The notes beneath the pieces are model-generated. The model worked only from the letters and a program-made list of their open reading frames with translations, was not told the origin of the DNA and made no database searches. From positions 1,594,827 through 1,658,826 of the forward strand of contig BDGG01000006.1 of assembly GCA_001949185.1 (NCBI GenBank): a DNA stretch of 64,000 nucleotides. The letters are read 5' to 3'. This DNA comes from Ramazzottius varieornatus. Its lineage: Eukaryota > Animalia > Tardigrada. Shown piece after piece: positions 1-57,973 of this stretch (positions are counted from its first letter, which is position 1; every line of letters begins with the position of its first letter). A program made the position numbers and the translations under genes.

Positions 1-605
1 AGCGATTCTTCCTTAAGGCTTGCTCTCCTCAAGCATCCGTCAGACCTGCAGGACAAGGAGCAATCGTCCACGAATATGCGAAAGTTTCTAAAATCAGGAA
101 TAACTATCGGCATTAGGATTCAGGAAACGAGATGACATACTGTAACTGACATTGTTATGTTTTATGACGTTAGGCAACACGTGGGTACAGGTAATGCTCC
201 GATTGATTGACAGATTGAATGACATGTCAGTTTACGTAATGTGACATTACATTCAAACAGCTGTTCCACTGGCCCTACTCAGAATTCAGATTTATTTAAA
301 TCCACAGATTTAGCTCAGCTAAATTCGCGTGCAGATTGGCCCATAGCCTAAATGTAGCCCGCCCATCGAGCTAAATCTAATGCACCGAAACAGGTCGATT
401 TAGCTAAATCCAGCGGCGTAAATCCAGTTGTGACGTCACATGGCTTACTGTTTTCCACCGAAAACAGCTGTTTTGCACTCGTCACCCGGTACTTCAGAGA
501 CGTGTTCTGGCGCGAAGACGGAAACATTTTCAACGTTAGTTTCATGATACTTTTATTTTGATTCACTTTATGTTAGGTCGCTGAAGTTCGTTTTTTCTTT
601 CGGAA

Positions 606-1969
606 ATGTCTTCTTGCGACGCTCCTTCGATACTCTACAGAGGACAGCTGCTTCCTAAACCAGCAGTTCAGCAAGTTCTTGTACAAAGTAGGATGGCAGA
701 AAAGTGTACGGTTCAAGCCACGAAGAGGGAAGGATGGACTAAGCAAGCAGAAGAAAGCCTCCTCCAGTGGTTAGAAACACCTGGAAACTACGACAAGTTT
801 CGGTCTGCTCCGCAAGACAAAGGAGATGGAAGGAAGAGAACTAGCTCCAACACCAGGATGGACATCACGCGGAAGATCGTGGAGCATCTTGCAAAGTCGG
901 GTGCTGTAAAGACGGAAAAACAAGTAACCACTAAAGTCCATAACCTTGTTGGGAAATGGAAAGAGGCTCATCTAGCCAAGACTGGGACTGGTTTCGGTGT
1001 CAATGGCGAAGGAACCAAAAACGGAAAAGCGCTACGGGGTAAGACGAACTTTCAATTTACGGAACTGTAAAAAAACATTTCATCTTGCTTTCAAATGAAC
1101 GATTTGCTCACTTTCGAGTTTTCGCTGGTGGTTAGACAGTTCTGATTGGTTGATTATTTCAAAGCGCTATAAGGTAAGATGAGGCTGTCAAAATACGAAA
1201 GTGTGTAAATACGGTTTGTTTAAGCTTTTACCGAACGATTTGCTCACTTTCGTGTTTTCGGTGATGGCTCAGCAGCTTTGATTGGCTGATTATTGCAGAG
1301 ACCATACTCGACATTTGCAAGTACTGGGACCGTCTTGATCCTGTTTTCCGCGATCGTGCTGGGATGTCTGCACCTTTTACAGGTGATAACGAAGATGGCG
1401 TGGCGACCAACGTTTTCACACTAGCCGTAACAGATAACACGGAAAAGACTATGGAATTTCCCGAAGGGACAGCCGAAGTTTCAGCAGAAGTACCGAAAGA
1501 CAGACCGACTTCTCGCTACTCTGAATTAGAGGACCATCGGTCGGTTGCTGATAAGATGCTTGACGGTGATTATGTTCCATCAGACGACGAAGAAACTCTC
1601 ACTGGATCACCTGGCTCAGCTTCAAAGAAACGTCCAAAAAAATTCAAGTCTTTGTGTGACGGCATGGATAAAAAGCCAAAAGAGAAAACAATGGATCTGG
1701 TAGGGATACTCGTGGCTAGCGGGAAAGAAAGGAATGAGCGTGCAGCGGCTAGGAACGAGGTCATGGAACGACGATTCACCCGAGAGTTGGACTTGAAAGA
1801 AAAAGAACTGAGACTGAACGAACAGCGACAGAAAGATGATCACGAGACGAAGATGGAAGAGCTCAGAATTCGACACCAAGAGATTGATCTACGCAAAGCC
1901 GAAATGGAATTCAAACGGACGGAGATGCTTCTAGAGTTGGAGAGATTGAAGCAGCAGCGTTTACAGTAG
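606..1969 (+). CDS. Harbinger-associated Myb/SANT-like DNA-binding protein (exons 606-1038, 1299-1969)
   Basis: WTKQAEESLLQWL...KQVTTKVHNLVGKWKEA trihelix-like motif. A GT-AG intron at 1039-1298 joins it in frame to ETILDICKYWDRLDPVFRDR and a C-terminal coiled coil. Confidence 0.85.
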
Positions 1970-2227
1970 TGGTTTCCACCATGAACACCAAGACACGAAA
2001 GTTAGGAAATTAGACTTCTTACTTTTTGCTAAACCAAAAAATCCAACTTTCTAATTCTAATCGCTATTGAGACTTGAAATCGAAGTGAACTGGACTGAAT
2101 CGAATACGTTTTTCTGGAATAAACGAACTGTTGATATTTTCTTTCTTCCAGAGCATCGATCGTTGGAGAAACGTTCTCTGAATCATGAAATGATACGAAA
2201 AATTAGCTTTCATGATTCCACTTAAAT

Positions 2228-3660
2228 TTACTGCCATCTTAAGACATATTGCTTGATTCTTTCTCGTTTGGTTGAACCTCGTTCAGTCGCTACCGCTTGT
2301 TGATTCGGGTTTGGAATCGGGCCGTCATCACCATCATCTTCCACTGTCCACTCTTCATCATATTCGTCGTCCAGAAGCATATTGTGCAGCATGCAACACG
2401 TTCTGATCCAGTACACAGCGAATTCGTGATCTTTCTTATTCTTGATTCTTAGTCGCAAGGCTTTTAAACTTTGGAAACGGCCTTTGAGCATTCCAATAGT
2501 CTGTTCCACGATAACCCTAGCCTGACTATGAGCTGTGTTGAAAGCCGTGTTCTCGTGACTGTTGGCCAGGGGTTTCTTGAACGTCGGGACTATAATATCC
2601 GATACGGGATAGGCGCTGTCAGCAAGCAGATATTCATGACCAGAAAAATATTTGAATGGATTCAGAGCTAGCTTCGAATACATGAACACTCTGTGATCAT
2701 GAGAACAGCCTGGGAAACCAGCCAAAACATGACGGATGCGTTTCAGATCATCGCAGACGATCATGGCATTAATGGCATAGCTACCTTTCCGCGTGTAGTA
2801 ATCTTCCCCACACATGGATGGAGCTTCCTGTAAACCAATTAGTGACCCGTCAACATATCCGNNNNNNNNNNNNNNNNNNNNNNNNNNNNNNNNNNNNNNN
2901 NNNNNNNNNNNNNNNNNNNNNNNNNNNNNNNNNNNNNNNNNNNNNNNNNNNNNNNNNNNNNNNNNNNNNNNNNNNNNNNNNNNNNNNNNNNNNNNNNNNN
3001 NNNNNNNNNNNNNNNNNNNNNNNNNNAGTGACCCGTCACATATCCGAGGCAGTGGGGAAACCCTTGGTTTTTTTCGATACGAGCTTTGATGGTAGCTCGC
3101 TCGCTCGTGTTAGGCCAAGTAACGACAGTCTTTTCCAGCGAGAGTAACGCGTACATCACTCTTTCGGTGTAAAGGCTCACAGTGCCCTCTCCAATTCCCA
3201 AACGCGATCCAGCAGTCCATAAAGACGAAGCGGAACCGTCGAATCCAAACCGCGACAATGCTACCATAAGCTGATCAGGCACAGGAGCCTGTTCGTGATG
3301 ACTCTTGTTCCTGAAGACAATGTGAGAGCCTATTTTGTCCACAACAGCGAAAAATGCTTGCCTGGTCATTCGGGCGTTTCTCTTGAAGGTCAGCTCATCT
3401 GACTGGAATATCAGGTAGGCTAACTCTTTCGTTTTTGGTGAGTTCACTCGCGCGGAAAGGTAACGGCTTTGAGTGGCGAAATATCGAACGACAGCTATCT
3501 TGATTTCTTCATCATCTTCCGAACTGCTGCCATCAGTTTCGCACAACATCTCATCCTCTTCGTCGCTACTAGAATCCAGAACATCATGAAGCACAAGATC
3601 TGTCAGAATTTTGACGTCGACTGACCGAACAAGTTCTTTACGGTTAACTAGACGAGGCAT
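2228..3660 (-). CDS. Harbinger (HARBI1-like) DDE transposase, about 415 aa once the N gap is collapsed
   Basis: Motifs GFPHCLGYVDG, YYTRKGSYAINAMIVCD, PGCSHD, LLADSAYP, FNTAHSQARVIVEQTIGMLKGRF, CCMLHN. Confidence 0.93.
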
Positions 3661-3906
3661 GGTCGAACTGCTAGTAAGTGAGCGAGAAACAGAAAACTAA
3701 ACTTTGTCACAGCTGGAAATTCGAGATGCATTCTCGGTGACGTCACCTTGGAATCTACGTCATTGAATCGCTACCGTGATTTAGCCGTTATTTCGGCACT
3801 CAGAATTCAGGTCGTAAATTGGCTGTCTGATTGGTGGATTTCGCTAAATCAAGATCCAACTAAATAAGCCTGATTTAGATAAATCTGAATTCTGAGTAGG
3901 GCCACT

Positions 3907-41000: not shown

Positions 41001-44000
41001 ATGAACACTAGCGACAATCAAAGCCAGAACAGTCCAACGGCGACGATCCAGAATCCTCATTTGAAGAAAGTCCTGAAGGCGTACCAAGCGCAAGCCATGT
41101 AAGTGCCCCTGCGGCTTGCCAAATCTGCAATTCGATATGCGTACGATTTTCTTCAAAATTCAGGAACAACCTCAATGGCCCATCTTCGGCCCATTCCTGG
41201 ACGGATACTGTCTCCTCGACTTCTTCGTCGGCCAAAAGATCCTCCTCGGTGCTGTCGGTTATTACATCGACCATCAAGACCGCCAAAAAGAGCAGCCATG
41301 ACGGCCAAGATCGACCGGAAACGGCTTTCCAACTTCCCTTCCCCATTCAACCGGCACCCGTCCTGTACGCGGCAGACCAAGCCTCGGCGGAACGCAAGGA
41401 AGTGATCCTGGAAGGCCAGACCATCTCGTGCTTTGAGGTAGGAGGTGAAAAGAGGCTGGTACTGCCGCAACTGCTGAACACTGTTTGGACTGATCGCCCG
41501 TTGGAAGAGATTAACCAGGTTTGCGACGATCTGCACGTCTTCATTGCCCAGTGCACTCAACAGCAACTGGAATGCCTGAAGAATAACAAGATCCTACCTG
41601 CTGGTGAGTGCCGTTAAGCTGTTTCGCAATTTGTTGCAGTCTTTGCAATGGAAGAGAAAGAAATCGAATGTGATCGAATGTATCAATCAAACTAGGACAG
41701 CCAATCAAGCCGTATGTCGTAAGCTTGGTCTGGCACACCATGAAGTTCATGAACGATTGTCCATTTCCGGTTCTAACACAGATTGGCCCACCATGTGTGC
41801 CTCGTTTGGGTTATCTCGTCTGGATTTCTAATCGTCGTTTTGTTTTTATCTTTCAGGTGCTCCAAGCTGTGGGCTGATAACGCAGACGGATGCCGAACGT
41901 TTATGTGGCCGGATCCTGCAGCACGAGGAGGCATCGTTCCCCATCGCCCACCGTGACAAGCTGCTGCAAATTCCTGTCATCCATCGGGAGTTTGGCAAGG
42001 TTGTGGGTACATGCTTCCCGGAGCTGTATTCGCGCGAGGAATCGCCGTGCATTGAGTGCCGCGAATGCCGAGCTCTCTTGTCACCTCGGCACTTTGTCCT
42101 GCACAGCCACCGATCGATGGAGGAGCGACGTCTTTGCCACTGGGGCTTCGACTCCAACAACTGGCGCCATTACATACTGATCCAGGACGATCTGAGCCAA
42201 GAGGCCCAGCGCCAACTCCTCCCACTCCTGGAAGACTTTAGGAAGAAACACCGCAACGGTGGCAACGACAAGCAAACCTCACAAAGCCGAAGACTCTGCA
42301 AAGGCAGCCTGGTAAGCTCAAAATATACTATAAATGTTCTGGGCACAGACCTGAGTCGGTGTGTCTCGTAGCTGAGGGTGTAAGGCTCCGGCCCGGAGAA
42401 GTGAGGCAGTTGATTGGTATTGCATGCTTGATTGGTCCTGTTTGTGTTTTTCTGGATAGCTGTTGACTCGACGTCTTTAACTGCCGCTTTTTAGTTGTCC
42501 GACTTCTTCGGGGGCTTCAAGGCTGTTTTTAGGTGCGTGGGTCATACTTGAGGATGGAATTGAAGGTTAAGAGAAAAAAGAATGTTGACGGAGGCATTGA
42601 TGAGACAGAAGGAAAGTAAGTCATCGGTGTCATAGTGTGGGTGGAAGGTTTTCTTTCGGTGGATTGGAACGGCGACGAGGAAAACAGTCGGGCTTGTTTG
42701 TGTCGAGCTGGGAGAGTCTTCGTGGCAAGCAAGCTGTCTGTATTTCTAGAAGCTGTACTGATGGAAAAGTGAGACATGTCGAGCGAGCGAGCCACCGAAG
42801 CTTGCGATGGAGACAAAGGCGACCGGTTTGCGAGGACTGGTTTTTTTCTTTCTCTTTGATATTTCTCTGTCTGCTTTGCCACCCTTTAATTAGGTCCGGT
42901 GTGCTTGTCATCGTCGACGAGACATGACTGAAAACTATTAACTGACCGGTCAAAGCAAGGAAGAAGTGTGAAGAGAGATTTGTATCGCTTGTGTTGTTGA
43001 AGAGAGCAAATGGCGACGGCGAAAGATGAGCAGTTTGCAGGTTCGTGAGATGCACACTGCTCTGATGAAATCACAGAAATAACTCCAGCGCGTATCTGTG
43101 CATGAGGAAGAGCGAGAAGGAACACAGGGAACGGTCGGGTTAGCCAGTGGTCTGCTTGGTTCGTCTGGTTCAAATTCGATCGTTGGGTTCGTTGATTTGA
43201 AGTTTGAATTTGAAAATCGCTTCAACCGTTGAATTTCTTCCTGACTTCCGCGTTGTTTCAACTAAATGCAGAAGTTTTTGCACGGTGTTTTGGTGTCATC
43301 TTGATGCGGCTTACTTTCATAATTGGAGCAATTGTCAGGGGGGAAAAAATGGTGAACGATGGTTTAATGGCCAATAAACACCGTGGCCAAGCGTGAGGTC
43401 GATAACGTAACCAGCCGATCGAAAGGGTTGACTCGATGCTTGCCGATGCTCTTTGAACGATAACAATTTTTTGTTTGATTCAAGTACGTCTCGACGTCGT
43501 TGTCGATACGCGCCTTGGCTGATTACAAATGCAAGAAAATGGCACGATAAACGCCAGTTTACTGCGGAGCGACAGGACCTCAAAGCTGCAGGTTCTGTCA
43601 AAAGACTCGTGCTGTTCAATAAACTTTTGAGACAGAAGAAAATCTCAATTTGTAAAGGTGTGCGCGAACGACACTTGTCTCTTTATTGCGCCATAACAAC
43701 AGCCTAGTTTGCCGGTGGACAAGACTCGGTGTAAACGAAGCTGACTTTTGCCAAGAAGATATAATTGCGCAAAGCTGGCAGCAAACTTGATTGTTTTTGC
43801 GCGTATCTGAGAGGTTGCCGACCAAGTTTAGGTTTTGCAGACTTTTTCTTGCCGTCTGGCGACTGCACTGAGAATAGCAAAGTCTTAATGTCGCACACAG
43901 TATGGTGTAGACCTGAGGAAACAATGAAGTCTTGCCGACATGAACATAAATTAACTTTAGCTGCCTCGGGGGTTTGCAAGGTAAATTATAATTATGGCCG

Positions 44001-47000
44001 ACGCGTCGTTCGCAATTTCCATGTTTCGTTACATTTGCCATTGTAAGGGTGCTGAGCGCAAGAGACGTTTTGTGCGCTGCTATACACGTTTGTCATGGGA
44101 GATTAATGATCAAATAATGAATAACGATGCAATATTAAGCGTAGAAAGCAGCGAATCTAGCCTTGGCGCCATGAAGGAATAAATTAGTAATTTGGAGATT
44201 GTCATCTGCTGCCTGATTGATTGAGCAAGCCGAAATCGCGTTGGATTTGCGATTTGGTAGGCGCAAGGTCGATTGAGGGAAAGATCAGAGTAGGCCAGTG
44301 TGTAGAAGGCGTGGGCGCTGGACAGTTGGGTGAAGGCCGAGGAAGTGAAGAGGCGAGCACGTGGGGAATCAGCAGGCAGTGCAGTGAACTCTCCGCAGTG
44401 ACGTAGACCGTGTCTGCTGCGTCAGTAGGCGCTGGGGCTGCGCGCCATGTGATGCGTAGGCGGAAAGGCATTTGCGAAGAACAAGCCTGATTGATGCGTT
44501 GGTGACATTCTTTGCAAGCGGGACTTTGATTGGCTAACTTGATTTGCGGGCCAGCCCGATGGTCCATCTTTGCATGTTGTCAAGAGTCAATGGCAAGGGA
44601 CGACGCACTGATTAAATTTTAATGGCCAGCCTGGCCTGATAGTGCACAAATGCCTGGCAGGGACAAGCGGCTTGAAAGGCGCGTGGGTAATCAAATTGCC
44701 ATAGTGGCTGGTGTATCTACAGAGAACCAGTTGAGCTGACAGGCGAGGAAAAGTCGGCGTAGTCTAGGAAAGAGCTGGAGCTTGTGACTGACTGATGCTA
44801 GACGACAGGCGCTACAGGGTGGATTGACATGAAAGCTTACGCCGGGCCTTGTTGGCGTGGAGGTCGAAGGAAGAGTAACTAGAAATTGGGTGCAATGTCT
44901 GTGTTTGCTTTGAGATGCGGCAAGACGAAGCACTGCGGCCAGCGCTGCCGAGTTTGAGGTGTCATACTTGAGACGACCAGGCTTATTTTCTTTGCTACGG
45001 CCTGTTGACGTGCTACTATGGTAAAGGACAAGTTTGGTGGTGGTGGTAGTAGGCCATTTCGCGACATTGCGGACAGCGATAGACTAGCGCTAGAACAACT
45101 AGCCGTTAGGAAAGTCTTTGAAGTTTCTGCTGACGTTGGCGATAGACGGAGACTCAATCAGGTCTTGTTGATGCAGCAGTAGCATGAAAACGACTAGGAT
45201 AATGGATGGATGAAATGTCCGGCCTTGTCAGCAGACGTGCGATGGTGCGGGTTCCGGTTTTACCACCGCCAGAACACGAAACTGCACTTTTCGCTGCTGC
45301 GATGGCTTTGGAAAGGAGCCTCTTGAAGGTGAACTGAAGTATCGATAGAAAGACCGTTCGGTGAGTGGGAAGAATGGGGAGGGCAGAGAAAGTAAAAAGT
45401 GCAGTCAAGCAAGCGATCAAGTTAACTGTAGGACTATTCATGGGGGGGGGGGGNNNNNNNNNNNNNNNNNNNNNNNNNNNNNNNNNNNNNNNNNNNNNNN
45501 NNNGGGGGGGGGGGGGGGGTATTGACGCTAAAGTGGAAAGACAAGATGGGGGATACCTCTGGTGTCGTCTTGTGTTTCTGTAGGAATCTAAATTAGATTG
45601 CCAGTCAGGCTGGGTGTTGGCAGAAGGAGAAGGCTTTTTTATAGAAGTGATTGGTGGCGGAGGCATGGAACGAGCGAGGAGAGAAATCCAGTAAGGATAA
45701 CAGTGAAACATGTCAGGCGCTCGCTACCCAACGACTTGACCACGCACTAGGATTGTGCTACGAGGACGTTCCTCGAAATATCCCAAAGTAGTGACGTGAA
45801 GGCTGTGCAGATTGGCCCGCAGCAATGAATGGAATGAGGCGGAATCAGGTTACTTAATGAGTTTATCAATTGTAAATGTCTCGTTTGCCCACATGAATGT
45901 TTCCTGTCTGGTGATGCGAACGCTGGAGAGTCGTCGGAACCGACGCGGGAAATTAGAGCTGGCGTAATGAGCGACTGGAGACTACTGTGTGCCAATTGAG
46001 ATGCGCAGATTGAAGCACCGGGGAAGTGAAGTAGGACCCAACAGTGTATCCTTGACCATTGAACAGTGCGGTAAATTAGGACATGCAGTAGGCGCTCGTC
46101 TGGGCATTCCGCTCATACTGGCGAGGGTGTTAGGGTAGGCTGTGAGACCTGCGTCGATTGATGTGGGTTTTTGACTGTGGTCGATGTGCAAGGTTTTCCC
46201 GATGGCCGGGACTTTGTTCGAGCTATTGAACCTTTGACTGCAGCTCTTGTTGTTTGTTCAGTGGTGGAAAAAATTGAGTTGGTGAAGGGATTATGGTGGC
46301 TTGATGGGTTGAAAGGGGAGTGCGAGGCGGAGACGATATTGATTTTCGACAAGTCAGACGCTTGTTTGTGAAGCGCGCTTTCTCTTCCTGGTGAGCTCAA
46401 ATTTCAACAGAGAAGATTGATGGGATTTTCTCGTTTGGAGTATTTGCGCCGTCAATCGGTAGACTAGGAGGAAAAAGAGCGCGAGCGAGGAGAGGATGAC
46501 AGGGGAGGAAATAGCCCGGTGAGCACAAATATCGATCTCTGTGAGTTTTTCTTTGTGTCTTGTTGACGAAAGGAATGTGTGCTGAATTCTTCTTCTATAG
46601 CTCGATCAGGGAATGCGTGGTTGTTGAGACTGGCTGGAAAGGAGCTGTAGAAAGGAGATGGCAGTAATTGGGCGAGAATGATGGGCCGTGGCAGACTTGA
46701 AGGGAACTGCGGCCTGTCAAGCGCCTTGGGTGCGTCAATGGCACATTGCTTCACTCGTCGCCCACCCAGTGCAGCAACGTACCCTTGGGTCCGTGCCAAG
46801 ACATGGCCAAGAGATAGTGTCTGGGGTTGAGAGAAGGTTGTTGTTACGTCGTCGCAACGAGTAGCTGCAACTTGACGTGCGCGCCATCGAACGACACTAG
46901 GCTAGATTGTCTTTCACGTTTTGAGGTTGAACGATACAATGTTATCTTTGTAGTGCGTCGGAGATGAGCCATTTTGATGGCGGAAGACACGCAAACGAGG

Positions 47001-50000
47001 AAGGACATCGGGAAAAGGTTTTTCTTTGATGGGTGGTTTTTTGTCGGCAGAAGGTTTTTGAGAAGTGGAAATGGTAGATGTGTGAAGAGTGTCTGAATGA
47101 GGTTTGACAGAGCTGGAGGTTGCGTTTTTATGGCGAGACAGGTATTTATGGCCGTAGCGTAATTGGAGACAACGCGCGTCGCATTGTGAAAAGACTTCTG
47201 GAAATCGCGAACGTACACAGCGCGTAAGAATTCATTAGGCATTCTCAAGGATGGCGAGACGCGAAGCTCGTTATATATGGCTGGGCTTTTAGTCTTTTAC
47301 GGCACAATCGCTTGCGTTTTATGGTCGGCTGCACTAAAGGCAAACGCGTCATTCGCTTTCTGACGATGGTCGAGAGATTTCACGCTTGGAAGGCCGTCGT
47401 CGCGATGGCAGACTTGCGTGTTGTGCACCGCTGACAGAGACACATGGCGCAAAGTGCAAAGGAAAAGAGTTGAGCTCTAGCCATGTAGAACAGTTACCAA
47501 GATGGCTTGGTGTTGTGGTCAGTGGGAAAATGCCAGGGAAAAGGGCGTGGAGGCTGACAAAAGTACAGTGCAGTAATGATCATATGCTCTAATAATTTGT
47601 CTGATAATGTCGTTAAATGCTGCAGACCGCGAAGACGCAGAAAGTACACTGCTCATTATCGAGGGTAAAGATAGGGCCAAGAAGAAGCTTTGCAAAACAG
47701 GCACCAGACCCTGCGCAAATTGAAACATCTTGCAGTCTGGGACTGTGTACTGGGGCTGTAATGGCCAACAGAAGCCAGCAGGTATGAGAAGAAATTATCA
47801 AGTGTGATTATGGCTTGACTGGCCAGCCGTGTTCTAGAGCTGCTTTACCTCACTCTGAAGACGGTTGTTAAAGTTTACGACCAGCGGTCAAACATACGTG
47901 GGCTGATTTGGGCGCAGCACGTAGGTTCACCTCCCACAACCTTGAACACGAGTAGGGCGACTTGGTCCTACTGCCCCAGTGGGACAGTTGGTGTGCGAAT
48001 AGGGTGTTTGACTGAAGCTCATCATGTGTAAAACAAGTATAAGCGTTGACTCTACAATGGGACTGTTGCCAGTAAGTTCAGCGCATACTAAGCCCAGGTT
48101 TTGCATCTAGTTGTGGGATTGTTGGAAGGGTTCGAGGTTTGAGGTTGGATGGGAAGGATTTGGTTGTAGTCCTGTGGGAAGGTGCGGAAGAGATGGACAG
48201 TGGTCTGCTCGGATGTTTGGAAGGCGACACGCGGAAGGAAATGAGATAATTACTCTTGTGTTTTTTGTGTAAGTTTGAGTGACAAGCGCTTTCATAACAT
48301 TTCGCTGAAATGGCCGTCTGACGAGCTGGTAAAGCGGACTAGGCGACAAGGACAGATGGCGGTACGCTGAATTTGTTGTACGATAGTGTTTGGCAAAAGT
48401 CGGACAGCGCGGAATGCAAGCCAGATGCTCGGATTTTTGCCGAGGTTGAAGCGGACTTTGCTGTAGCTTGATGGAAAACGAGCGTGTGTTGAAGAAGTTG
48501 TAGTGCCAAGACGCTGTCAGGCGTTGCTGTCGCTGGTACTGCACCAGTGACACGACACCAGTGGTGCACAACTCTTTCCATTAGAAGGGGATAGACGATT
48601 GAGAATAAAAAAGCGATCACTTTTGAGCAACGATCATCGTTGAGAAAACAGACATGATGGCTGCGTGACGGCTGGGAAGAAGGGCATAATAAATCACGAT
48701 GCAGCCAAGCGGAACAGGCTCACAAATGGGAAATGGCTGGCACCATGTGTCGAGAAGCGTACCATGCCGCGACCTCCTGTTCTTGTCACAAGCTTCACGC
48801 ACATTCGCTATATTCTTCTTCTAAATGGACTAGGGTGAACAACTTGGCAAGTTACGACAAGGTTTTCAGTCTTTGGAAACCTAACAAGAAAACACATACG
48901 ACCGATCGCACAGATTTCGCCAACTAAATCGACAAGAAAAGAATATGTACTCATATCAAGTTGACTGATTTTTTGACGAGATTTAGGATTTTGATTGGTC
49001 GATTGACGGTATGGATGGTTGTGCGAAATGGTCTGTGAGGTTTCATAGCTTGATTGGTGGATTGAAGGGAGGGTAGATTGTTTGGAAGTTTGGATGGGTT
49101 GATTGAGAGGAGGTGAAGGATTTGATTGCGGGAGGCTGAATTCTTGCCGGGGGAATTGGTTTTGCCGCGCTAGGATTTGGCATGTTGCGTATCGGTTTCT
49201 CTTTAAAGCCTCGCCATGTGGCGGAGGTCGAGGGATTACGGCGTATGTGAATTCTTGGATGTGAATGGAAGAAAGAGGGATTACGTGGAAGAAAAGTGTG
49301 GGCGAGTGTCTGAGGAGTGGGCATATGCGAGGAGACTTGGCTATGCATTGGAGCGAAGCATAGTAAACATGCTCAATCGATCAGAAAGCCATCAGTATGG
49401 TCATCGTAAAAGGCAAATTCATATTAGACCAGTTATAAATCCATAAATGCCACAAACCTAGAAGCTAACTTCCCGCCGGCCATTTTGTACTGTGAGCTCG
49501 TCAGTCAGCAGGCTAGACGGACGGAGAGGGAACGTCCGTCTGTAAAAGATCCATCTCGCATTGACGTCTGTAGCGGCTTTACGGTCCCGCAGCGCTGGCT
49601 GCGCTTCATCGCGTCGCCAGTCAGTGGAAATCCGTAGCAAACAAGATGGCTTTACAGCAGAAGAGCTTAGCTCGCCGTAAGACGAGGGGGAAAAAATGTC
49701 CGTTTTCCTGATGGATTTGGTCGCGCTTGAAAGCACTGTGCGCGACTTGGTCGGGGAAACGAAAATGGAAGGGGTAAATGTGGTTATTCGAAGTGGCGCA
49801 CTCTTTCAGCTAATAACTTCGGAACGTGCGCCACTTGAGGCAGTAATTGGGTTTGAACAAGGACATGAAGTTGGGTTGGTTTTCGGGGTCTGATTTCTTG
49901 ATTGAGGTTCGGTTGAAAGGAACTAGACGGCTTCCTGGTCTGTTCGTCGGGGTTGCGAGTGGTGTTTGGGTTGGGAAGTGTAGAAGAAGAGGGGGTGGGT

Positions 50001-52519
50001 AATGGAAGTAACATGGAAATGCACCGTAGACGTTGGTAGACAGAGACTGTTTACATAATGATGGAAGAAGTCATTTTGGGGGGGTAGTAGTTTGGCCTTT
50101 GTGATTGATGTCTAATGGAGCTGATTAGCTTTGATGAAACTGCAGCAAGAGGCTCTGAGGCTAGACGGAGGAGTGGAAGCAACGTCTGATACACGTCAGT
50201 GTAATTTATTCTGCTGGTGGAAGAAAAGTGCCTGCCGACATGTCTGGAGAAAGCGGGCAGCAAGGAAAGTTTAATGGCGATGGGCGAGGCTCTGTAAGGA
50301 AAGAAAGGGGCTCGTCCTGGGAATGGGGTGGATGTGACTGTGCTGGGGAGGAAAGGAGGAGGAAGACTGAGATGTGTCTTGTGTTGATGTGCGTGTGTTG
50401 TGTGTGTGCCTCATTTACTCTTGAGGCCAAAAGTCTGAACGATACTTGGGACGACGCTAATGGCCTTTGCGTTTTTATGTCTGCTGCTTGTGTTGTGTTG
50501 GTGGGGCTCCTTTCATGTCTGGATGAATGTCCCTTGAACTTTTGACGACGACGTCTTTGTGTCTTTGAGGGGGAAGATGAGGCAAGTCATTTGGGAGCGA
50601 CGGAAGTTGCGTGCAGACTGGAGAGTTGATCATGAGGGGACACACGCCAAGAGATGGGAACAAAGAGGGGCTTGACGTCAAAGCGACTCGACCTCAATCA
50701 GAGCGATCGCTGAGAGCTTTGGTAGACAAAGAGCCTGAAACAAACCGGCGGAAGTGAGGTCTTTGACGAGGGAAAACTTTAGGGATTTCGATGGGGTAGA
50801 TTGTCCGCGCTCATTTGAATGAGTGGAATGAATAATTTGATCAACGGAAAAAAACCCATACAGACACGCGTTGAATGAGCTGCCGTAATCTGCTGAATCT
50901 CTCTCTCTTCAATGGAAGAAACTAAACTCAGATGATCCTGGAAAGCTTTAGGGAAACAGCTGCGCTAAATTAAGACCGGAATCTTTTGTGTCCGGTTGAC
51001 GTTTGAAACGTTGAGATGATTACTAAGCGTACTTGGGCAATCAGAAGTTCAAAGAGAGTGAATGCGAAAATGAATGTGTTGGGATTTTTTTCAGATTGAG
51101 GAAGAAGCAAATCGTCTTTCGGCTCTGGCTAATGGCAAGCGCATCAAGATTGAGGAAGCGGTGTACCCGGGCCATGCAGGCTTCCCGGCCATGTGGTTCA
51201 TCCCTCGGGATAACGAGAAACTGGCCACAGGCTACGTGGCGTCACCTGCTGACATGGCTTCCACCTTCACTCGAGCCGTTGTGTAAGTACAGCTTTCTCA
51301 ACACCTTCGTTCCTGTTTGGGTGGCGTGCAGATGAATCGTACGAAATCGCCACGGCGCACGTGTTTATTGTTATTGTCCGTAAGCGTGCGCTACTTGGAA
51401 AACCGATCTTGCAGAGTTCGTTCATTTTTTCAAGTGACGCACGTTTTGAGTGTTATAGGATGAGACCGTGCGCCGCTTGAGGAGCAGATTTGGTTCGCGC
51501 TATTTGCCCATGGTTAAGTTTATTTTGAAATTTACTAAAATATTGGTATTTTCTTTGTAGATCGGTGAACAACTTGACGGTGGTCAGTAGCGCAAACCAG
51601 AGCGCAATTCCAGCTTACTTGAACAAGGGACCGCCCATGATGATGAACCCGGACAAGATTGTGTTACAATCGCCCTTTGACAAGTAAGTAAAAGGATTAG
51701 AAAGCTTTCAGTAAAATGACAGATTTGGTAGAGAATGGTGAACTATATTTTGTACCTTTTTCTGTACAGGTTTGCCCACGGTGAGAAACTGCCACCGAAC
51801 GTGGCACTGGTTCCCGCGCCACGCAGTGTGGTTTCCATGTCTAGTCAGAGTAGCTTGCCGGCTCGCAGTGATGGTCAACACATGAGCAACCCCTCTTCTT
51901 CTCGTATCGTGCTTTCCTCAAATTTTAACCATGCAGCGGCGGATCGTCAACGAGGTGCAGACTTCCACGAAGCCGCGGATATGATCATCGAGACCGATGA
52001 CGAGTCTTCTTCGGAATCGACACTGTCGATTGATGAAGGTGCGGTCTTTCGTTCTTCCTTCCCCTGGTCCGTCAAAGCTGAAGTGAGTTTTGTGCTTTCA
52101 GGTCGAGAAAAACCTTTCTTGGAAGAACAGGAAGAAGAGCTGTACAGAGTCTTGTCACAAGTCGATTCCGGTGTGAAACGACAAGTGCTGGATGTATACA
52201 GTGTGACGAAACAGCACTACATTAAACAGCTGGAGGACAGCCGACTCGAAAATTACAGATTAAAAATGGTAAGAGTATGGAAAGCCTGTCTAAAACCATT
52301 TACGACATGGAGAAATGAATGGGGCCAGATCGTTCTTTCAAGTAGCGCACGTTTTCGTTTCAGTTATGTGGAGGTGCGCCACTTAGGGAAACAATCTGGT
52401 TGAAAACATTTTGGCCATGTTCGACTTTTTGCATTTTCGAATCTTTTATATATTGATTTTTCTTTGTGTGGTTTCAGAAACTGGAACTTGGTGAGGCATC
52501 ACGGACGGAGTCTTCGTAA
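41001..52519 (+). CDS. SKI: Ski/Sno family Smad co-repressor, multi-exon, with an 8.8-kb intron at 42312-51094
   Basis: [14 protein letters not shown] domain [21 protein letters not shown]...[16 protein letters not shown]-like domain CIECREC...FVLHSH...[14 protein letters not shown], and downstream PPNVALVP. Ski versus SnoN subtype is not resolved. Confidence 0.92.
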
Positions 52520-53381
52520 TTTTTAGCTATTGTATCCTGGACGTGGCTTCACTCGACTGGCTGGAAGTTTTTCTTCTTCTTCTCCTGCGCTGTGTCCCCT
52601 CTTTTCAACCGGTTTTCACTCTCTCCTCCTGTACAGTTGGTTTTTTTTCTTCTTAATTGAGTCATTTTTTGGCATTTACGTTTCGTTTCGTTTTTCGAAC
52701 TGACGATCCACAGACAGACACAATCTTACGATTTTCATATTGTATACCTGGCCGCCGGAGGGTTTACCACTACGATGACGATTAGTAGCGCAGACACGGT
52801 GTTCTTTTTGGCATTATCAGTATTATTTCCTCATGTAGTTGTAGTCTTTAGTAGCTCATTTCACTGTAGCTGGTTGTTGTTTTTATTTTTCATTTTGCAC
52901 ACACCCACATATGCATTACATGGAGAGAACTGTTTGATGTTACTAATGTGGTACCGAGTTTATTTGTAAAGACAATGGCTCATATTTCACCAGTCGGCTT
53001 CGCTGTACGTCAGTTGAGAGCGCCACCTGGCGTTGCGGGAAGAGTGAAGATTTCTGGTTTCCAGACACGGATCCAACAACCCACAACGCTCTAACGTCAC
53101 GAAGGCCAGAAACTTTAACCCGATAGGAGGAATGGACGTCTGGATTCGCGGGGCTCCCCCTGGTGACCGTGTTGTTTAAGGGGAACTACCCTTGACATTC
53201 CAACCTGACGAGCTGACCTTTCTTCCGTGACCTTTACTGGAATGTTACTCACGTGACTCACCGCCTAACGTCATCACCTCGACCGGAAGTGATGACGTCA
53301 TCGGCTCGCTCCGATAACGCAATTATCATTTTCTTTGATTTATTGTGTGGGTCTTTAAGACCTCTTTTTTTTCTTCGGATT

Positions 53382-53785
53382 TTATTTGTTGATCATTCTC
53401 TTCTTACAAGTACAAGGTCTAAAAAGAGGAAAAGAATGCCAAGACTCAGAGACGCCTTCGTCAATGTCCAGGTCCATGAGCAGGTCGTTCTCGTTCTTCT
53501 TCAGTTCTTCCAAGCAAAAGTAATCCTCAACAGGAATCGGCAGCGTCTTCCCGTCCTCGGTCACCTTTTCTAGCAGACAACGATTCTTCGGGTCCTGGTA
53601 CACCATTTTTGCGCACGAATCGATGGCGCACGTTTCGCAGCACGAAGGCAGTCCTTTGTAGTCGTGTCCAAAGGCATAGCAGTAGGCAGTAATTTCCCAT
53701 ACTGCACGCCTATCAGGAACTCTCGACGACATCCCTCATCCGCAGCGATGATTCGGATAACGTCCTCGTACGTGGGATAAACCAT
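53382..53785 (-). pseudogene. Cys-rich unknown protein, paralog A (one frameshift near 53732)
   Basis: MVYPTYEDVIRIIAADEG / ...SCCETCAIDSCAKMVYQ...GKTLPIPVEDYFCL. AATAAA overlaps the stop codon. Confidence 0.65.
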
Positions 53786-53903
53786 GTAGATAATGGGAAG
53801 GAAATAAAAATGAGTAATATGGTTCGTTGATATACAGAAACAGAAGCACCCAGGAATAGTCACTACCGGTTGGAATACAGCTGACGTTTAGCACCCAAAC
53901 AAA

Positions 53904-54248
53904 TCAAAAGTGTTCAGGCGTAAACGAGGTCACTGCCGACTTGGCTGCCTTCCAGCCACGGATATAGGAGCAGTCAGTACACGGGATGATGATTCTAGAA
54001 CCTCGCTGAACGGCTTTGGGAATCAGACCTGCTTTCTTCATGGATTGGTAGACCTTCATGGCACAGGAGTTGCGAGCACAGACATCACAACAGAAGGAGT
54101 TATTTCCTCGGAGTGGCGTTGGAGACCAGAGAGCTTCTACCACAGCAATGACACTTTGGGGTTTCGGATGAAGATAAAAGTAGTCAAGGTGGATGCCGTG
54201 ATAAAGAGCGATACAGTCCACTGCTTCAGCAAAATAATAAGCCGTCAT
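53904..54248 (-). CDS. Cys-rich unknown protein, paralog B (114 aa, intronless)
   Basis: MTAYYFAEAVDCIALYHG...FCCDVCARNSCAMKVYQ...GSRIIIPCTDCSYI aligns with its neighbours. Confidence 0.7.
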   Translation of the reverse strand: MTAYYFAEAVDCIALYHGIHLDYFYLHPKPQSVIAVVEALWSPTPLRGNNSFCCDVCARNSCAMKVYQSMKKAGLIPKAVQRGSRIIIPCTDCSYIRGWKAAKSAVTSFTPEHF

Positions 54249-54291
54249 TTCAATCGTCCGAAAGCTCCACAGGGATGAAATGGTAAAGAAT

Positions 54292-54530
54292 TTAGTGCTC
54301 TCGTCGGGTGTATCCGTACAATGCCACCTTTTGCAAACAGAAGTGATCCGAGCAAAGGATAGGCAACTCTATTCCGGATCGCGTTGTTTCCTCCAGTTGC
54401 TGGCACTCCTTCAGGTGAATGTAGACCTTCCGGTCACAGCGCGCAGATCGCAGGTTCTTGGTTCTTGGCCACAGTGAAACTTCCTCTTCGTCTGTGTAAG
54501 ACATCCTCCAATGGCGAAGTCTCTCTTGTC
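54292..54530 (-). pseudogene. Cys-rich unknown protein, paralog C (5'-truncated)
   Basis: ...RCDRKVYIHLKECQQLEETTRSGIELPILCSDHFCL matches paralog A. The 5' part is replaced by tauD sequence. Confidence 0.55.
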
Positions 54531-55291
54531 CCAGTACCAGAGACGCTCGAGAAATTATCATGCTAGACACCAGTCCGGAAAATCTTCCAGATAGTGACGC
54601 TTGGAATACTGATGTCACTTTTATCAAAGTAAGCTTCTTCTGCCGTATCCTCACCTTTTAAGTTGTTCACCTTGTTCCAAAAGGTTGCCTGCACTGCTGG
54701 TATCTAGACTCCGCCCATCGGATCGGTCTTGATGGCGCGAATGTTACCACCGGGCGGCGGGGATACTTCCTGGTCTAGCAACGTGACGGCTCATAACGCC
54801 CTATCCCAACCGTTCCGTCGTTTTCTGCACGGGCTAACCGCCGTGCATGTCTCTACACATGATTTCACGAAGGAGCAACATGCCGGCGGAGATCAAGCGA
54901 AATGGAACGAGGCGGTAGGTAGCCAAACATCAAGGAATATACAGCTTCTCTCAGACTTGGTCCAAAGATATACGCATTATCTTCACTTTAACAGGTTAAG
55001 AATAATCCACCGGTGGTCCATCCCGTTACAGGAAAGTTAGGCCTTTTCATCAACAGTATCTGGACCACACGTATTGTGGAACTGAGCAAGTCGGAGAGCG
55101 ACATGGTCTTGCGGTATCTGTTCACGCATTGCGCTAAGCCCGAATTTACGGGTCGTTGGAAATGGAGTGTGGGTGATGTGGCCTTCTGGGATACCCGCTT
55201 GACACAACACTACGCATTGGCAGATTACTTGCCTCGCCGACGCATCATGCATCGCGCTACCATCCTGGGAGACGAGCTTGGAGGCCCCTAG
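54530..55291 (+). pseudogene. tauD: Bacterial-type taurine dioxygenase (TauD) with two spliceosomal introns, 5'-truncated
   Basis: EIIMLDTSPENLPDSDAWNTDVTFIK | intron 54629-54707 | TPPIGSVL...GGDTSW...ALSQPFRRFLHGLTAVH...WNEA | intron 54915-54994 | ...HPVTGK...[31 protein letters not shown]. Confidence 0.88.
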
Positions 55292-56012
55292 GTTATCCTA
55301 TCGAGACAACCTTCCCACCATAGTAGCTGCCTTACGGACAGGAGGAATATACTGCGTAATAGCATGTTTCAAGAAAACCTTTCCAGCTAAAGTCCATGAT
55401 ATATTAGAGTTCAGTCTTTTTGACGGTACAAATTCTCATAATGGTATTTCGCCAAAACGGATTATACTGAGCCAACAAGATGCCGCATCACAACCGCTTG
55501 TCCAACTTTGGGCCATCGCCGCGAGCATCTGTCTCGGATGGAAAATCGGTGGTGCTACGTTCCTACCAGGACACCAAAGCTTTTAGACCGCGATCTACCT
55601 GCAAAGACTCACCGAACGACCAATCATGCGTAATACGATACGCAAACGATGGCAACCCACCCGGTTACCCAGCCGATTCTCGTTCCCTGACACGCAAAGT
55701 CACAGAATCACTATACTCAACCAAGTAAAGCTTCCGACTTTCGGACCCCGCTTCCCTGAATGCCCGAGTTCGGGACTTCTGACTTCCTGCTTCCTGATTC
55801 CAAACCAATCAAGTAATTCCCAATCAAACCTGGAGCACAACACGCCAAGAAACCGTAAATTCATACTGCTCCCCGGAATTACCGTCGATCAGCCTGAAAG
55901 CTGCATCGACGTACAAGTAAAACGTAAACAAAGAGGCGGTCCTCAACCAGCCACAGCACAGACTAGGAACTCAGAGCCATAGGAAAGAAGGAAGCGGCGG
56001 GGTTACGTAGCA

Positions 56013-56500
56013 GTGGTACCCACCTCGTCTTTACGTTATTTCTGGTTCACTGGTCTCCACTTCCCAGATAACCGACAACCAGCCGCAGAACTGGCACTTG
56101 CGGTCAGGCGATTCCGTCGGGCTGTTCGGCCTTTCCGATTCTGTTATGCCATGGCCATTTTCAGTCTTACCGTTACTCTTCTGTGCTTTACCGACAACGT
56201 TGAATACTTCTTCCGCGAAAACTCGGCTGCTTTCTGTAGCCTGTTCGTACTTGTCCGGGGTTACAAACTATTTTGGCGAATGCGTACAGTTCGCCATCAT
56301 CCTGCCTCTGCTGGTCTGGTCCCGAAAATCAACCGACAAGCTCTTGCGGCAGGTTGACAATGTCTTGGTGAAGTATTTTCGAAGAAGAAAGCAGAGATTT
56401 TTCGAAGAAAATCCATCGTTTTCGCTTTGTGGTATCTTGCCTCGGGCTGATTGAATATTATGGAAACTTGAGATGGCGGTTGTGCACCGCGAATTCTTCG
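56013..56500 (+). pseudogene. Frameshifted multi-TM fragment, possibly gustatory-receptor-like
   Basis: SLRYFWFTGLHFP...CYAMAIFSLTVTLLCF continues in another frame as VTNYFGECVQFAIILPLLVW. Confidence 0.3.
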
Positions 56501-57973
56501 GGTCTACGCCTTACTCTGGATAGACGGCGCGTAACCGGCACACGCAGTGGCATTGTTTGCCTGCTTAAAGTACACGCGCGAAGGGAAAGTTGGGAACATG
56601 CGGAAAAGACGGCGAACTGAGAATTCAACCGTAGGAAATTGTCAAAAAGTGCATTGGTGTGAATTGCACACGTACGTACGAGCTTCCGTTCCGCTGTTTC
56701 GGAATCACCTGTTCCAAACTTTCCCTTCGAGCGTGTACATCTTTTTCCGGTAACGCCGAGGCCATTACCCAGATGTACTACACCTCTTTGACTACAATGT
56801 CTTAACTGCCGGTTTCCGAAGTATCATTATTATCCATAGACTAGATCGAGCGATCCACTGGACGTGAAGGTCGTCGACTGCGTCAAACGCCATCTTGAAC
56901 TTTACCATAAGACTTGTGGGCAACATTATCCCCTGTCCAGATCGAAATGCGTTCAAGTTCCTTCCCAGTCGACCGGTGGCCAAGAACATCGTTACCGGTT
57001 TAACTGAAGGATTTTGGGTGCATTTGAAATACCTTACGTCGGTACAGCCTTTTGTATCCTCAAACTTAAGAAGCGCCATGTTGGAATATCGGACCAGATG
57101 AATTAGCTACCACCATGGTCCAACCGGCAAGATGAGCTAACTTTTAATGAAAAGGTACTGAATGCTGCCGCGTATCCGATAACAAGAAGTTGTACGTCGT
57201 TGAATGCTCCCGAATATTCCGTTCTGCCTTGTTTTCGCCCTTTCTGGATCAATACGCGTATTAACTCACTTTGTGGAAAGCAGACATTCGCTGTCAAGTA
57301 AGCGGATAGGAAGGTGACTGGGAGATGGGAAAAAGCTCTACCGGATAAGAGGGACCTCGAGCTCCATGACAGATTAGAGCCACCCCTTCCCCAGTTTCCG
57401 TCGATTCCAAAGGATAATTATACCTTTATGTCACACGCAACCTTGCCAGCAAAAGGTGGCAGACGGGCGGGAAGAAGAACCTCTTCGGGTGATTTGATTA
57501 GTAATCTTCCAAAGAAGGCTTAACGAAAGACCATTCATATCCCTCATCATAGTCCTTCATTTTTTGTGCGCTACCTTACCATCCGCACTGAGCTCGGTGA
57601 AAAGCAGAGTATGCTGATCCCGGATTTTGCAACTGAGCAAGTGGTAATCGAGACCCAAGATAATATGTCATTGTACTGCACGTGGACCGAACGAAAAAAC
57701 TGAACACTAACAGCTGATCTGACACAATAAAAATGTAAGAGATCTAACACGGCAAGCTTACACGCGACCACGTTAACACCGAAATTTAAAAATTGGTTTG
57801 GGACGGGTAAAAATGGCAGGCATATTTGTTCTTTGGTCTCAGGGGTGGCGACGAACCAGGACATAATCCTTCCGTATGGTTTCCATACATGCTTTCAACC
57901 TATACGAAACACAGCGGTAAGCTCCCACGACCGACAACCGAAACACATACTGTGATAGTAAGATGGCATTGAC

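Follow-up and report, generated by a model that had tools for sequence, protein, structure and literature searches.

A decayed cassette of cysteine-rich genes with a predicted dsRBD/DUF283-like fold, possibly Polinton/Maverick cargo, in the tardigrade Ramazzottius varieornatus

Several described systems come close to the locus reported here. Nematode Mavericks hold a cargo region of 2–5 kb between the TIR and the integrase, in which patchy accessory genes such as the WASP proteases and the KRMA kinases occur (10.1101/2022.07.12.499685). The invertebrate DNA virus IIV-6 encodes 340R, a dsRBD protein that acts as a suppressor of RNAi and needs Lys86 and Lys89 for RNA binding (PMC4231766). The DUF283 domain of Dicer binds Dicer partners (PMC7827160), and the fission-yeast (S. 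pombe) Dicer, Dcr1, carries a Zn-extended dsRBD with the ligand spacing C-X36-H-X37-C-X-C (PMC3199388). Three Dicers are present in R. varieornatus (PMC12505628). In the literature searched we found neither a dsRBD nor an RNAi antagonist reported for a Polinton, a novelty on which subscription papers and supplements may bear, and no account of endogenous viral elements in Ramazzottius. Neither tardigrades nor a Polinton dsRBD gene is mentioned in the accessible parts of PMC8502044, PMC8363768, 10.1101/2023.08.22.554363 or 10.64898/2026.10.13.758929.

Here we describe three minus-strand genes, A, B and C, within a 64,000-nucleotide stretch of R. varieornatus contig BDGG01000006.1 (the window). 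They belong to a real, undescribed family of small genes on a decayed mobile element. Our main reading is that the element was a Polinton/Maverick and that its cargo consisted of Cys-rich, stand-alone dsRBD/DUF283-fold proteins opposing RNA silencing; we assign this reading as a whole a probability of roughly 0.38.

The original prediction was of three ORFs on one strand, separated by about 43 and 118 bp. Strand and spacing were borne out, with gaps between the minus-strand units of 43 bp (54249–54291) and 118 bp (53786–53903), but only gene B is intact. Gene B (53904–54248, minus strand) encodes 114 aa and has paralogs in RvY_01999 (74%) and in the C-terminal part of RvY_14412 (79%). Gene C (53382–53785, minus strand) is frameshifted near 53695, where its intact paralog RvY_11804 (protein P0005) matches by tblastn in two abutting frames of 94% and 85% identity; an intron at this break was ruled out. 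Gene A is represented by a 3′ remnant (54292–54458, minus strand) that matches residues 63–120 of the metagenome protein P0008 at 45% identity (E = 2e-16, tblastn within the window). A short frame-disrupting loss falls within its Cys motif; the CCxxC part is absent in frame and the N-terminus is missing. The middle of gene A (54459–54525, plus strand, ends approximate) lies inverted where the element remnant has its upstream junction. P0008 matches it on the plus strand (E = 0.003), and in a contig from another copy 54438 is linked to 54507, the two being on opposite strands. The breaks in genes C and A are genomic rather than assembly errors, because a DNA-run contig matches 53326–55607 with zero differences and a likely RNA contig crosses the gene C break with four differences and no gap.

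The proposed paralogy of the three genes holds well beyond shuffled controls: the observed score was reached by 0 of 2000 shuffles for B–C, 0 of 2000 for A–C and 4 of 2000 for A–B. A profile made from three metagenome relatives alone scored 53.1 bits on B (best of 500 shuffles, 11.0) and 74.0 bits on the C piece (best of 500 shuffles, 11.6). An N-terminal YxExV-type motif had been ascribed to A and B; it is present in B and in the gene at 53785, and absent from the 54292 remnant. The CxxC-x32-CxxC arrangement noted for B was confirmed by counting (C54/C57 and C90/C93). Also as described, one AATAAA overlaps the last stop, that of gene C (53381–53386, minus strand), and a second lies at 53339–53344 (minus strand), the two starting 42 bp apart at 53386 and 53344. 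The overlap with the stop may be accidental, because intact RvY_11804 stops about 20 codons earlier. No AATAAA occurs on the minus strand between the three genes, and because of this we propose that they would form one transcription unit, read toward the element end.

The family was thought to be unrecognised, and indeed no member scores above a Pfam cut-off. A profile search identified 7 family proteins among 2438 candidates. The named relatives are solely R. varieornatus hypothetical proteins, dispersed over three scaffolds: RvY_11804 (on a 2.48-Mb contig, apparently that of the window), RvY_01999 (9.33 Mb) and RvY_14412 (1.85 Mb). RvY gene identifiers were absent from the full texts searched and from 24 of the 27 supplements of PMC5531438. 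Metagenome relatives comprise a C-type cluster (n = 5) and P0008, an intact A-type protein. In a tree, B-types group with full support, and A- and C-types are joined less firmly, with a long-branch warning. Because the tail of RvY_01999 is C-like, although out of frame, and RvY_14412 starts with an A-like remnant, the A-B-C tandem order recurs at other loci. IMG/VR scans with P0008, alignment A2, P0005 and P0001 returned no family relative, a scan with P0009 reported three related stretches and returned 0 loci, and JGI metagenome scans and phage records yielded no relative. A search for longer family proteins yielded none among 7992 candidates of 353–2000 aa. Two candidates were rejected: P0007 (4872 aa), which has no matched stretch and two Cys, is spurious, and the IMG/VR hairpin-pattern loci L001–L003, which are phage or bacterial DNA lacking family members, are chance matches.

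The core of these proteins is likely a dsRBD/DUF283-like fold and not a free-standing Zn finger, as judged from predicted structures. The RvY_11804 model, built on a seven-row alignment, has the order helix-strand-strand-strand-helix (alpha-beta-beta-beta-alpha), with pLDDT of 62–89 over residues 1–70 and below 50 past residue 74. Compared with 48,161 chains, it found dsRBD- or DUF283-bearing structures (by title or range) in 49 of the top 50 places, the sole exception being phage Acb4 (Z 6.0). Its best match had Z 7.8 with an rmsd of 2.5 over 72 residues, a range (Z <8) in which, as the tool warns, similarity can reflect a common arrangement. The longest alignments, of 76–81 residues, fall in the part of Dicer that we take to be the DUF283 domain. 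Foldseek likewise ranked dsRBD-type folds first, with no E-value below 0.01 and none significant, and its viral matches included reovirus VP5A, giant-virus DRBM proteins, rotavirus NSP3 and coronavirus ORF4a. The predicted RvY_11804 model thus shows the fold of the dsRBD clan (PF00035).

At the sequence level, P0008 alone among 11 members matched Pfam Dicer_dimer (PF03368), at E = 5e-4 and 20.4 bits against a gathering cut-off of 23.7, and none of the 11 matched Pfam dsrm at E up to 1. Together, the paralog model and this sub-threshold match make a dsRBD fold highly probable. For B, the model was too poor (mean pLDDT 47) to show this fold; its secondary structure follows a similar order, and it gave no dsRBD match (best Z 3.7). 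PDB sequence searches and PHROGs gave nothing significant. In the ESM Atlas, dsrm- and Dicer_dimer-bearing clusters came up for P0008 at scores of only 0.76–0.79, below the bar of the tool, and the C piece was nearest to unnamed clusters (0.94, with 143 shared features), which is not informative. Unlike Dicer DUF283/Dicer_dimer, which is internal to Dicer, the family proteins stand alone at 114–121 aa, fall under the Pfam cut-off and have extra conserved Cys.

Four of these cysteines are present in all seven rows of the alignment, three of them at the start of helix 2, where CCxxC occurs in 7 of 7 rows of alignment A2. In RvY_11804 numbering, the conserved columns are 49, 50, 53 and 58 and, in part, 70, 86 and 91. 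In canonical dsRBDs, helix 2 begins with a basic, KKxAK-type motif that contacts RNA. Judged by eye, the Cys-rich residues of the family appear to occupy the site of these usual basic contacts. By analogy with fission-yeast Dicer, a Zn ion may be bound by the helix-2 cysteines together with those of the C-terminal tail. Dcr1 and, by prediction, the family share a dsRBD core and a Cys-bearing C-terminal tail with a putative Zn fold-back (PMC3199388), whereas the spacing of the Dcr1 ligands is not found in the conserved Cys columns of the family, where the pattern is CCxxC-x4-C with P[C]xD..C in the tail instead.

We propose that the trio formed a cargo block beside a Polinton/Maverick terminal repeat and that its products would fold as dsRBDs and interfere with host RNA silencing. 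They could serve as decoys that engage Dicer or the dsRBD proteins partnering it, which we prefer to RNA sponges because Cys-rich residues appear where the basic helix-2 RNA contacts usually are. Given the fold, we hold such a counter-silencing mechanism to be slightly short of an even bet. The closest parallel would be IIV-6 340R, likewise a small stand-alone dsRBD of an invertebrate DNA virus or element (PMC4231766). In contrast to that canonical dsRBD, the tardigrade genes have no Pfam dsrm match, carry CCxxC at helix 2 and occur as three diverged tandem paralogs. A more specific version, a tardigrade Polinton-like virus whose triad of Zn-stabilised, stand-alone DUF283 mimics sequesters Dicer cofactors, with one B copy possibly in a host transcript, is doubtful.

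The proteins could also be cargo of a Polinton-like element with another role, as Zn-stabilised protein-interaction modules or small-molecule sponges, which we regard as unlikely. Many dsRBD folds bind no RNA, and a basic RNA-contact motif is not evident in the family. Acb4, the exception among the fold matches, is a cGAMP sponge, and adintoviruses bear accessory ORFs with CxxC motifs, termed 'Oncoid' (PMC8502044). Against a role of this kind, the only family match at the sequence level is a Dicer domain, and the helix-2 region of B and P0009 is basic (7 K/R versus 1 D/E).

Whatever the proteins do, the DNA that carries them has a defined end. The putative element end, a candidate terminal repeat (53140–53380), has GC-rich palindromes at its tip, a TGAC-rich stretch and a hairpin. 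Copies elsewhere share a stop of matching at about 53140–53157: a 1364-nt DNA-run contig matches 53157–53285 and then continues for at least 255 nt unlike the window, and a third copy likewise matches no further than 53157. Both have loose ends similar to 53140–53157, with CTAG where this copy has CTGG (plus strand). TGAC/GTCA words number 9 in the 190 bp inside the end, compared with a mean of 1.65, a count reached in 1 of 1277 windows, and the folding z at the element end is −2.27, with 3 of 200 shuffles as extreme. The hairpin (53268–53298) has a perfect 10-bp stem, among the two longest of five perfect stems of at least 9 bp in the window. Rfam gave 0 matches over 52900–57200.

On the other side, the remnant borders a 5′-truncated TauD-like host gene (54526–55291, plus strand), a flank outside the element in which Pfam TauD matches two pieces. 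Splice-like GT/AG sites in its sequence indicate that it apparently contains introns. The inverted gene A piece abuts the middle of a TauD exon, with the frame read at the junction; the missing 5′ part of this exon was not found. Loose ends of contigs include a paralog of the TauD-like gene with a matching exon junction. Because other copies stop matching at the same hairpin-rich end, we conclude that the remnant, spanning about 53140–54525 (~1.4 kb), is a decayed fragment of a multi-copy element. This copy is unable to move alone. Neither an inverted partner of the end within the window nor a target-site duplication at the truncated upstream junction was found.

Further copies, traced through proteins, tables of read contigs and the published gene table, exist in several states of completeness. 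An 11,165-nt contig from the DNA run is a second copy, matching 53326–53840, and two more DNA-run contigs match B at 85–86%. Contigs of runs X8 and X10 contain an A-B copy with about 95% similarity, which in X10 lacks the inversion; it is unlisted for the filtered DNA-run records, which hints at strain differences. The third copy, in two likely RNA runs, joins the element end straight to 53867. Splicing was considered for this joint (53295–53867) and rejected; because GT-AG ends are lacking and the contig is 12% diverged, we read it as a further copy without C.

The original prediction placed the genes, as one of two options, in an accessory array of an endogenised DNA virus or large transposon, which is supported by dispersed copies with a shared end and by a Polinton-type integrase near one paralog. 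In the portion of the gene table consulted (PMC5034306, Suppl. file 2), RvY_02004, annotated as an rve integrase, and RvY_01999 are five gene models apart, and RvY_02349–02358 form a Polinton-type cluster that includes an adenoviral protease and DNA_pol_B_2. GI 1244746 is the best hit of four genes in the searched part of the table, two of them annotated as rve integrase, and all four sit one or two genes from a gene that shares its best hit with RvY_02349–02358, although for RvY_02005 the shared best hit is weak (E 0.053). This link comes from RvY_01999, the one of three other loci that the consulted part of the table covers (it ends before RvY_11804 and RvY_14412), and is expressed in gene-model order, not in distances or strands. 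The proximity of the integrase may also reflect clustering of transposable elements, since LTR reverse transcriptase, retropepsin and DDE_1 genes are listed in the same region around RvY_01999. From the neighbourhood of this one paralog, we judge a Polinton origin of the cassette slightly better than even.

Similar to nematode Maverick cargo, the trio consists of patchy accessory genes near an element end and, at one other locus, an rve integrase, with scattered, decaying copies (10.1101/2022.07.12.499685). It differs in that its three genes are paralogs, intronless and predicted to fold as dsRBDs, and in an indirect link to core genes, at another locus. Polintons/Mavericks are recognised by TIRs of 100–1500 bp and a target-site duplication of 5–8 bp; we observed one shared end of about 240 bp. 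Capsid, NS1, PolB or integrase genes did not turn up among the 103 ORF pieces in 43–64 kb of the window, nor did protease, ATPase or replicase core genes in these same pieces around the 1.4-kb copy. Our Pfam scan covered these ORF pieces plus three ORFs from 1–43 kb.

Alternatively, the cassette could be a Helitron 3′ end, the three genes being carried or captured by the element, a reading that we consider rather improbable. Helitrons end in a 3′ hairpin and CTRR and insert between A and T (PMC4344730). On the loose ends of two other copies, CTAG follows GC-rich palindromes, whereas the present copy ends CCAG and then A (minus strand), not CTRR and then T. The orientation of the trio toward the shared end would suit a Helitron. 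Helitrons commonly leave 5′-truncated copies. Helitron genes are present in the R. varieornatus gene table, but none is annotated in RvY_01971–02026 around RvY_01999. No RepHel was found among the ORF pieces scanned in 43–64 kb, and the 5′ end of this copy is lost. Because defining features are missing from this copy or not demonstrable in it, the cassette is left outside Polinton, Helitron, dsrm and Dicer_dimer membership.

The neighbourhood of the cassette and the gene table hold other features that we record separately. Apparent Polinton remnants, not labelled as such, occur in the consulted part of the gene table at RvY_00105–00108, 01865–01869, 02003–02006, 02349–02358, 03105–03107 and 03449. 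Some Polintons carry PC4-like ssDNA-binding proteins, which an intronless 95-aa ORF at 56792–57079 (minus strand) may resemble; this reading found no support in searches of Pfam, PHROGs and PDB sequences. A MITE at 56570–56738 has 29-bp inverted arms, 93% complementary, and is apparently TA-flanked, with up to 44 DNA-run contigs overlapping it, and a low-copy repeat at 55550–55920 has indel variants in other contigs. A spliced host gene with no Pfam match occupies 51094–52975 (plus strand), and its four GT-AG joints show that run X8 is RNA. Short repeats at 51379–51447 and 52324–52404, in or near its introns, are in inverted and direct relation and have many loose ends elsewhere. Strong G skew (0.15–0.34) extends over about 7 kb at 44000–51000, where neither a tandem repeat nor a meaningful match in Pfam was found; this region is perhaps a decayed retroelement. 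At 585–3696, a Myb/SANT-like ORF (E = 2.4e-4) and an opposite-strand ORF across an N gap have a putative PIF/Harbinger-like layout.

Some observations would fit a host origin, in which lineage-specific small dsRBD cofactors (Loqs/R2D2/DRB-like or derived from Dicer) were spread by segmental duplication and are now decaying. Between B and its high-depth paralog, 18 of the 34 listed differences within the ORF fall at third codon positions (p = 0.014; 38 of 57 differences are listed, 34 of those within the ORF), suggesting that B is under some coding constraint. In 3 of 3 likely RNA runs examined, this B paralog is carried by a high-depth contig, with a loose end that by hand translation matches RvY_14412, and RvY_01999 has an FPKM of 1.4–5.7 (gene table, PMC5034306, Suppl. 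file 2). The runs listed with the locus include none recorded as RNA, and contigs of the locus itself in likely RNA runs are of low depth, from which strand or level is not readable. The expansion of tardigrade Dicers (PMC12505628) would also suit host cofactors. A host family is nonetheless quite unlikely, given genes that are intronless and tightly packed with a single polyA region for three, the discrete end shared by the copies, most of which are broken, and the absence of proteins of another named tardigrade from the relatives found. Least probable is that a different DNA virus (bidna-, parvo- or adeno-like) whose termini are hairpins or ITRs left an endogenised end here: the hairpins and recurrent TGAC words found there, the inversion at the junction and the short contigs (666–2696 nt) of close metagenome relatives would suit one, but NS1, capsid and PolB are absent from the 43–64 kb ORF pieces, the searched part of the gene table has 0 'Parvo' rows, and multiple copies with one boundary better fit an integrase- or transposase-driven element.

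Should the proposed function fail, what stands is an unnamed gene family of a mobile element, mostly decayed. If the more specific reading as DUF283 mimics is correct, the genes would represent a decoy-type RNAi suppressor directed against the three Dicers of the host, undescribed for Polintons or animal transposons. Polintons face small-RNA defences in animal germlines, and this family allows a direct test of counter-silencing cargo. It would also add a novel Cys-rich branch to the dsRBD fold and offer a way into tardigrade DNA viruses, which are almost unknown.
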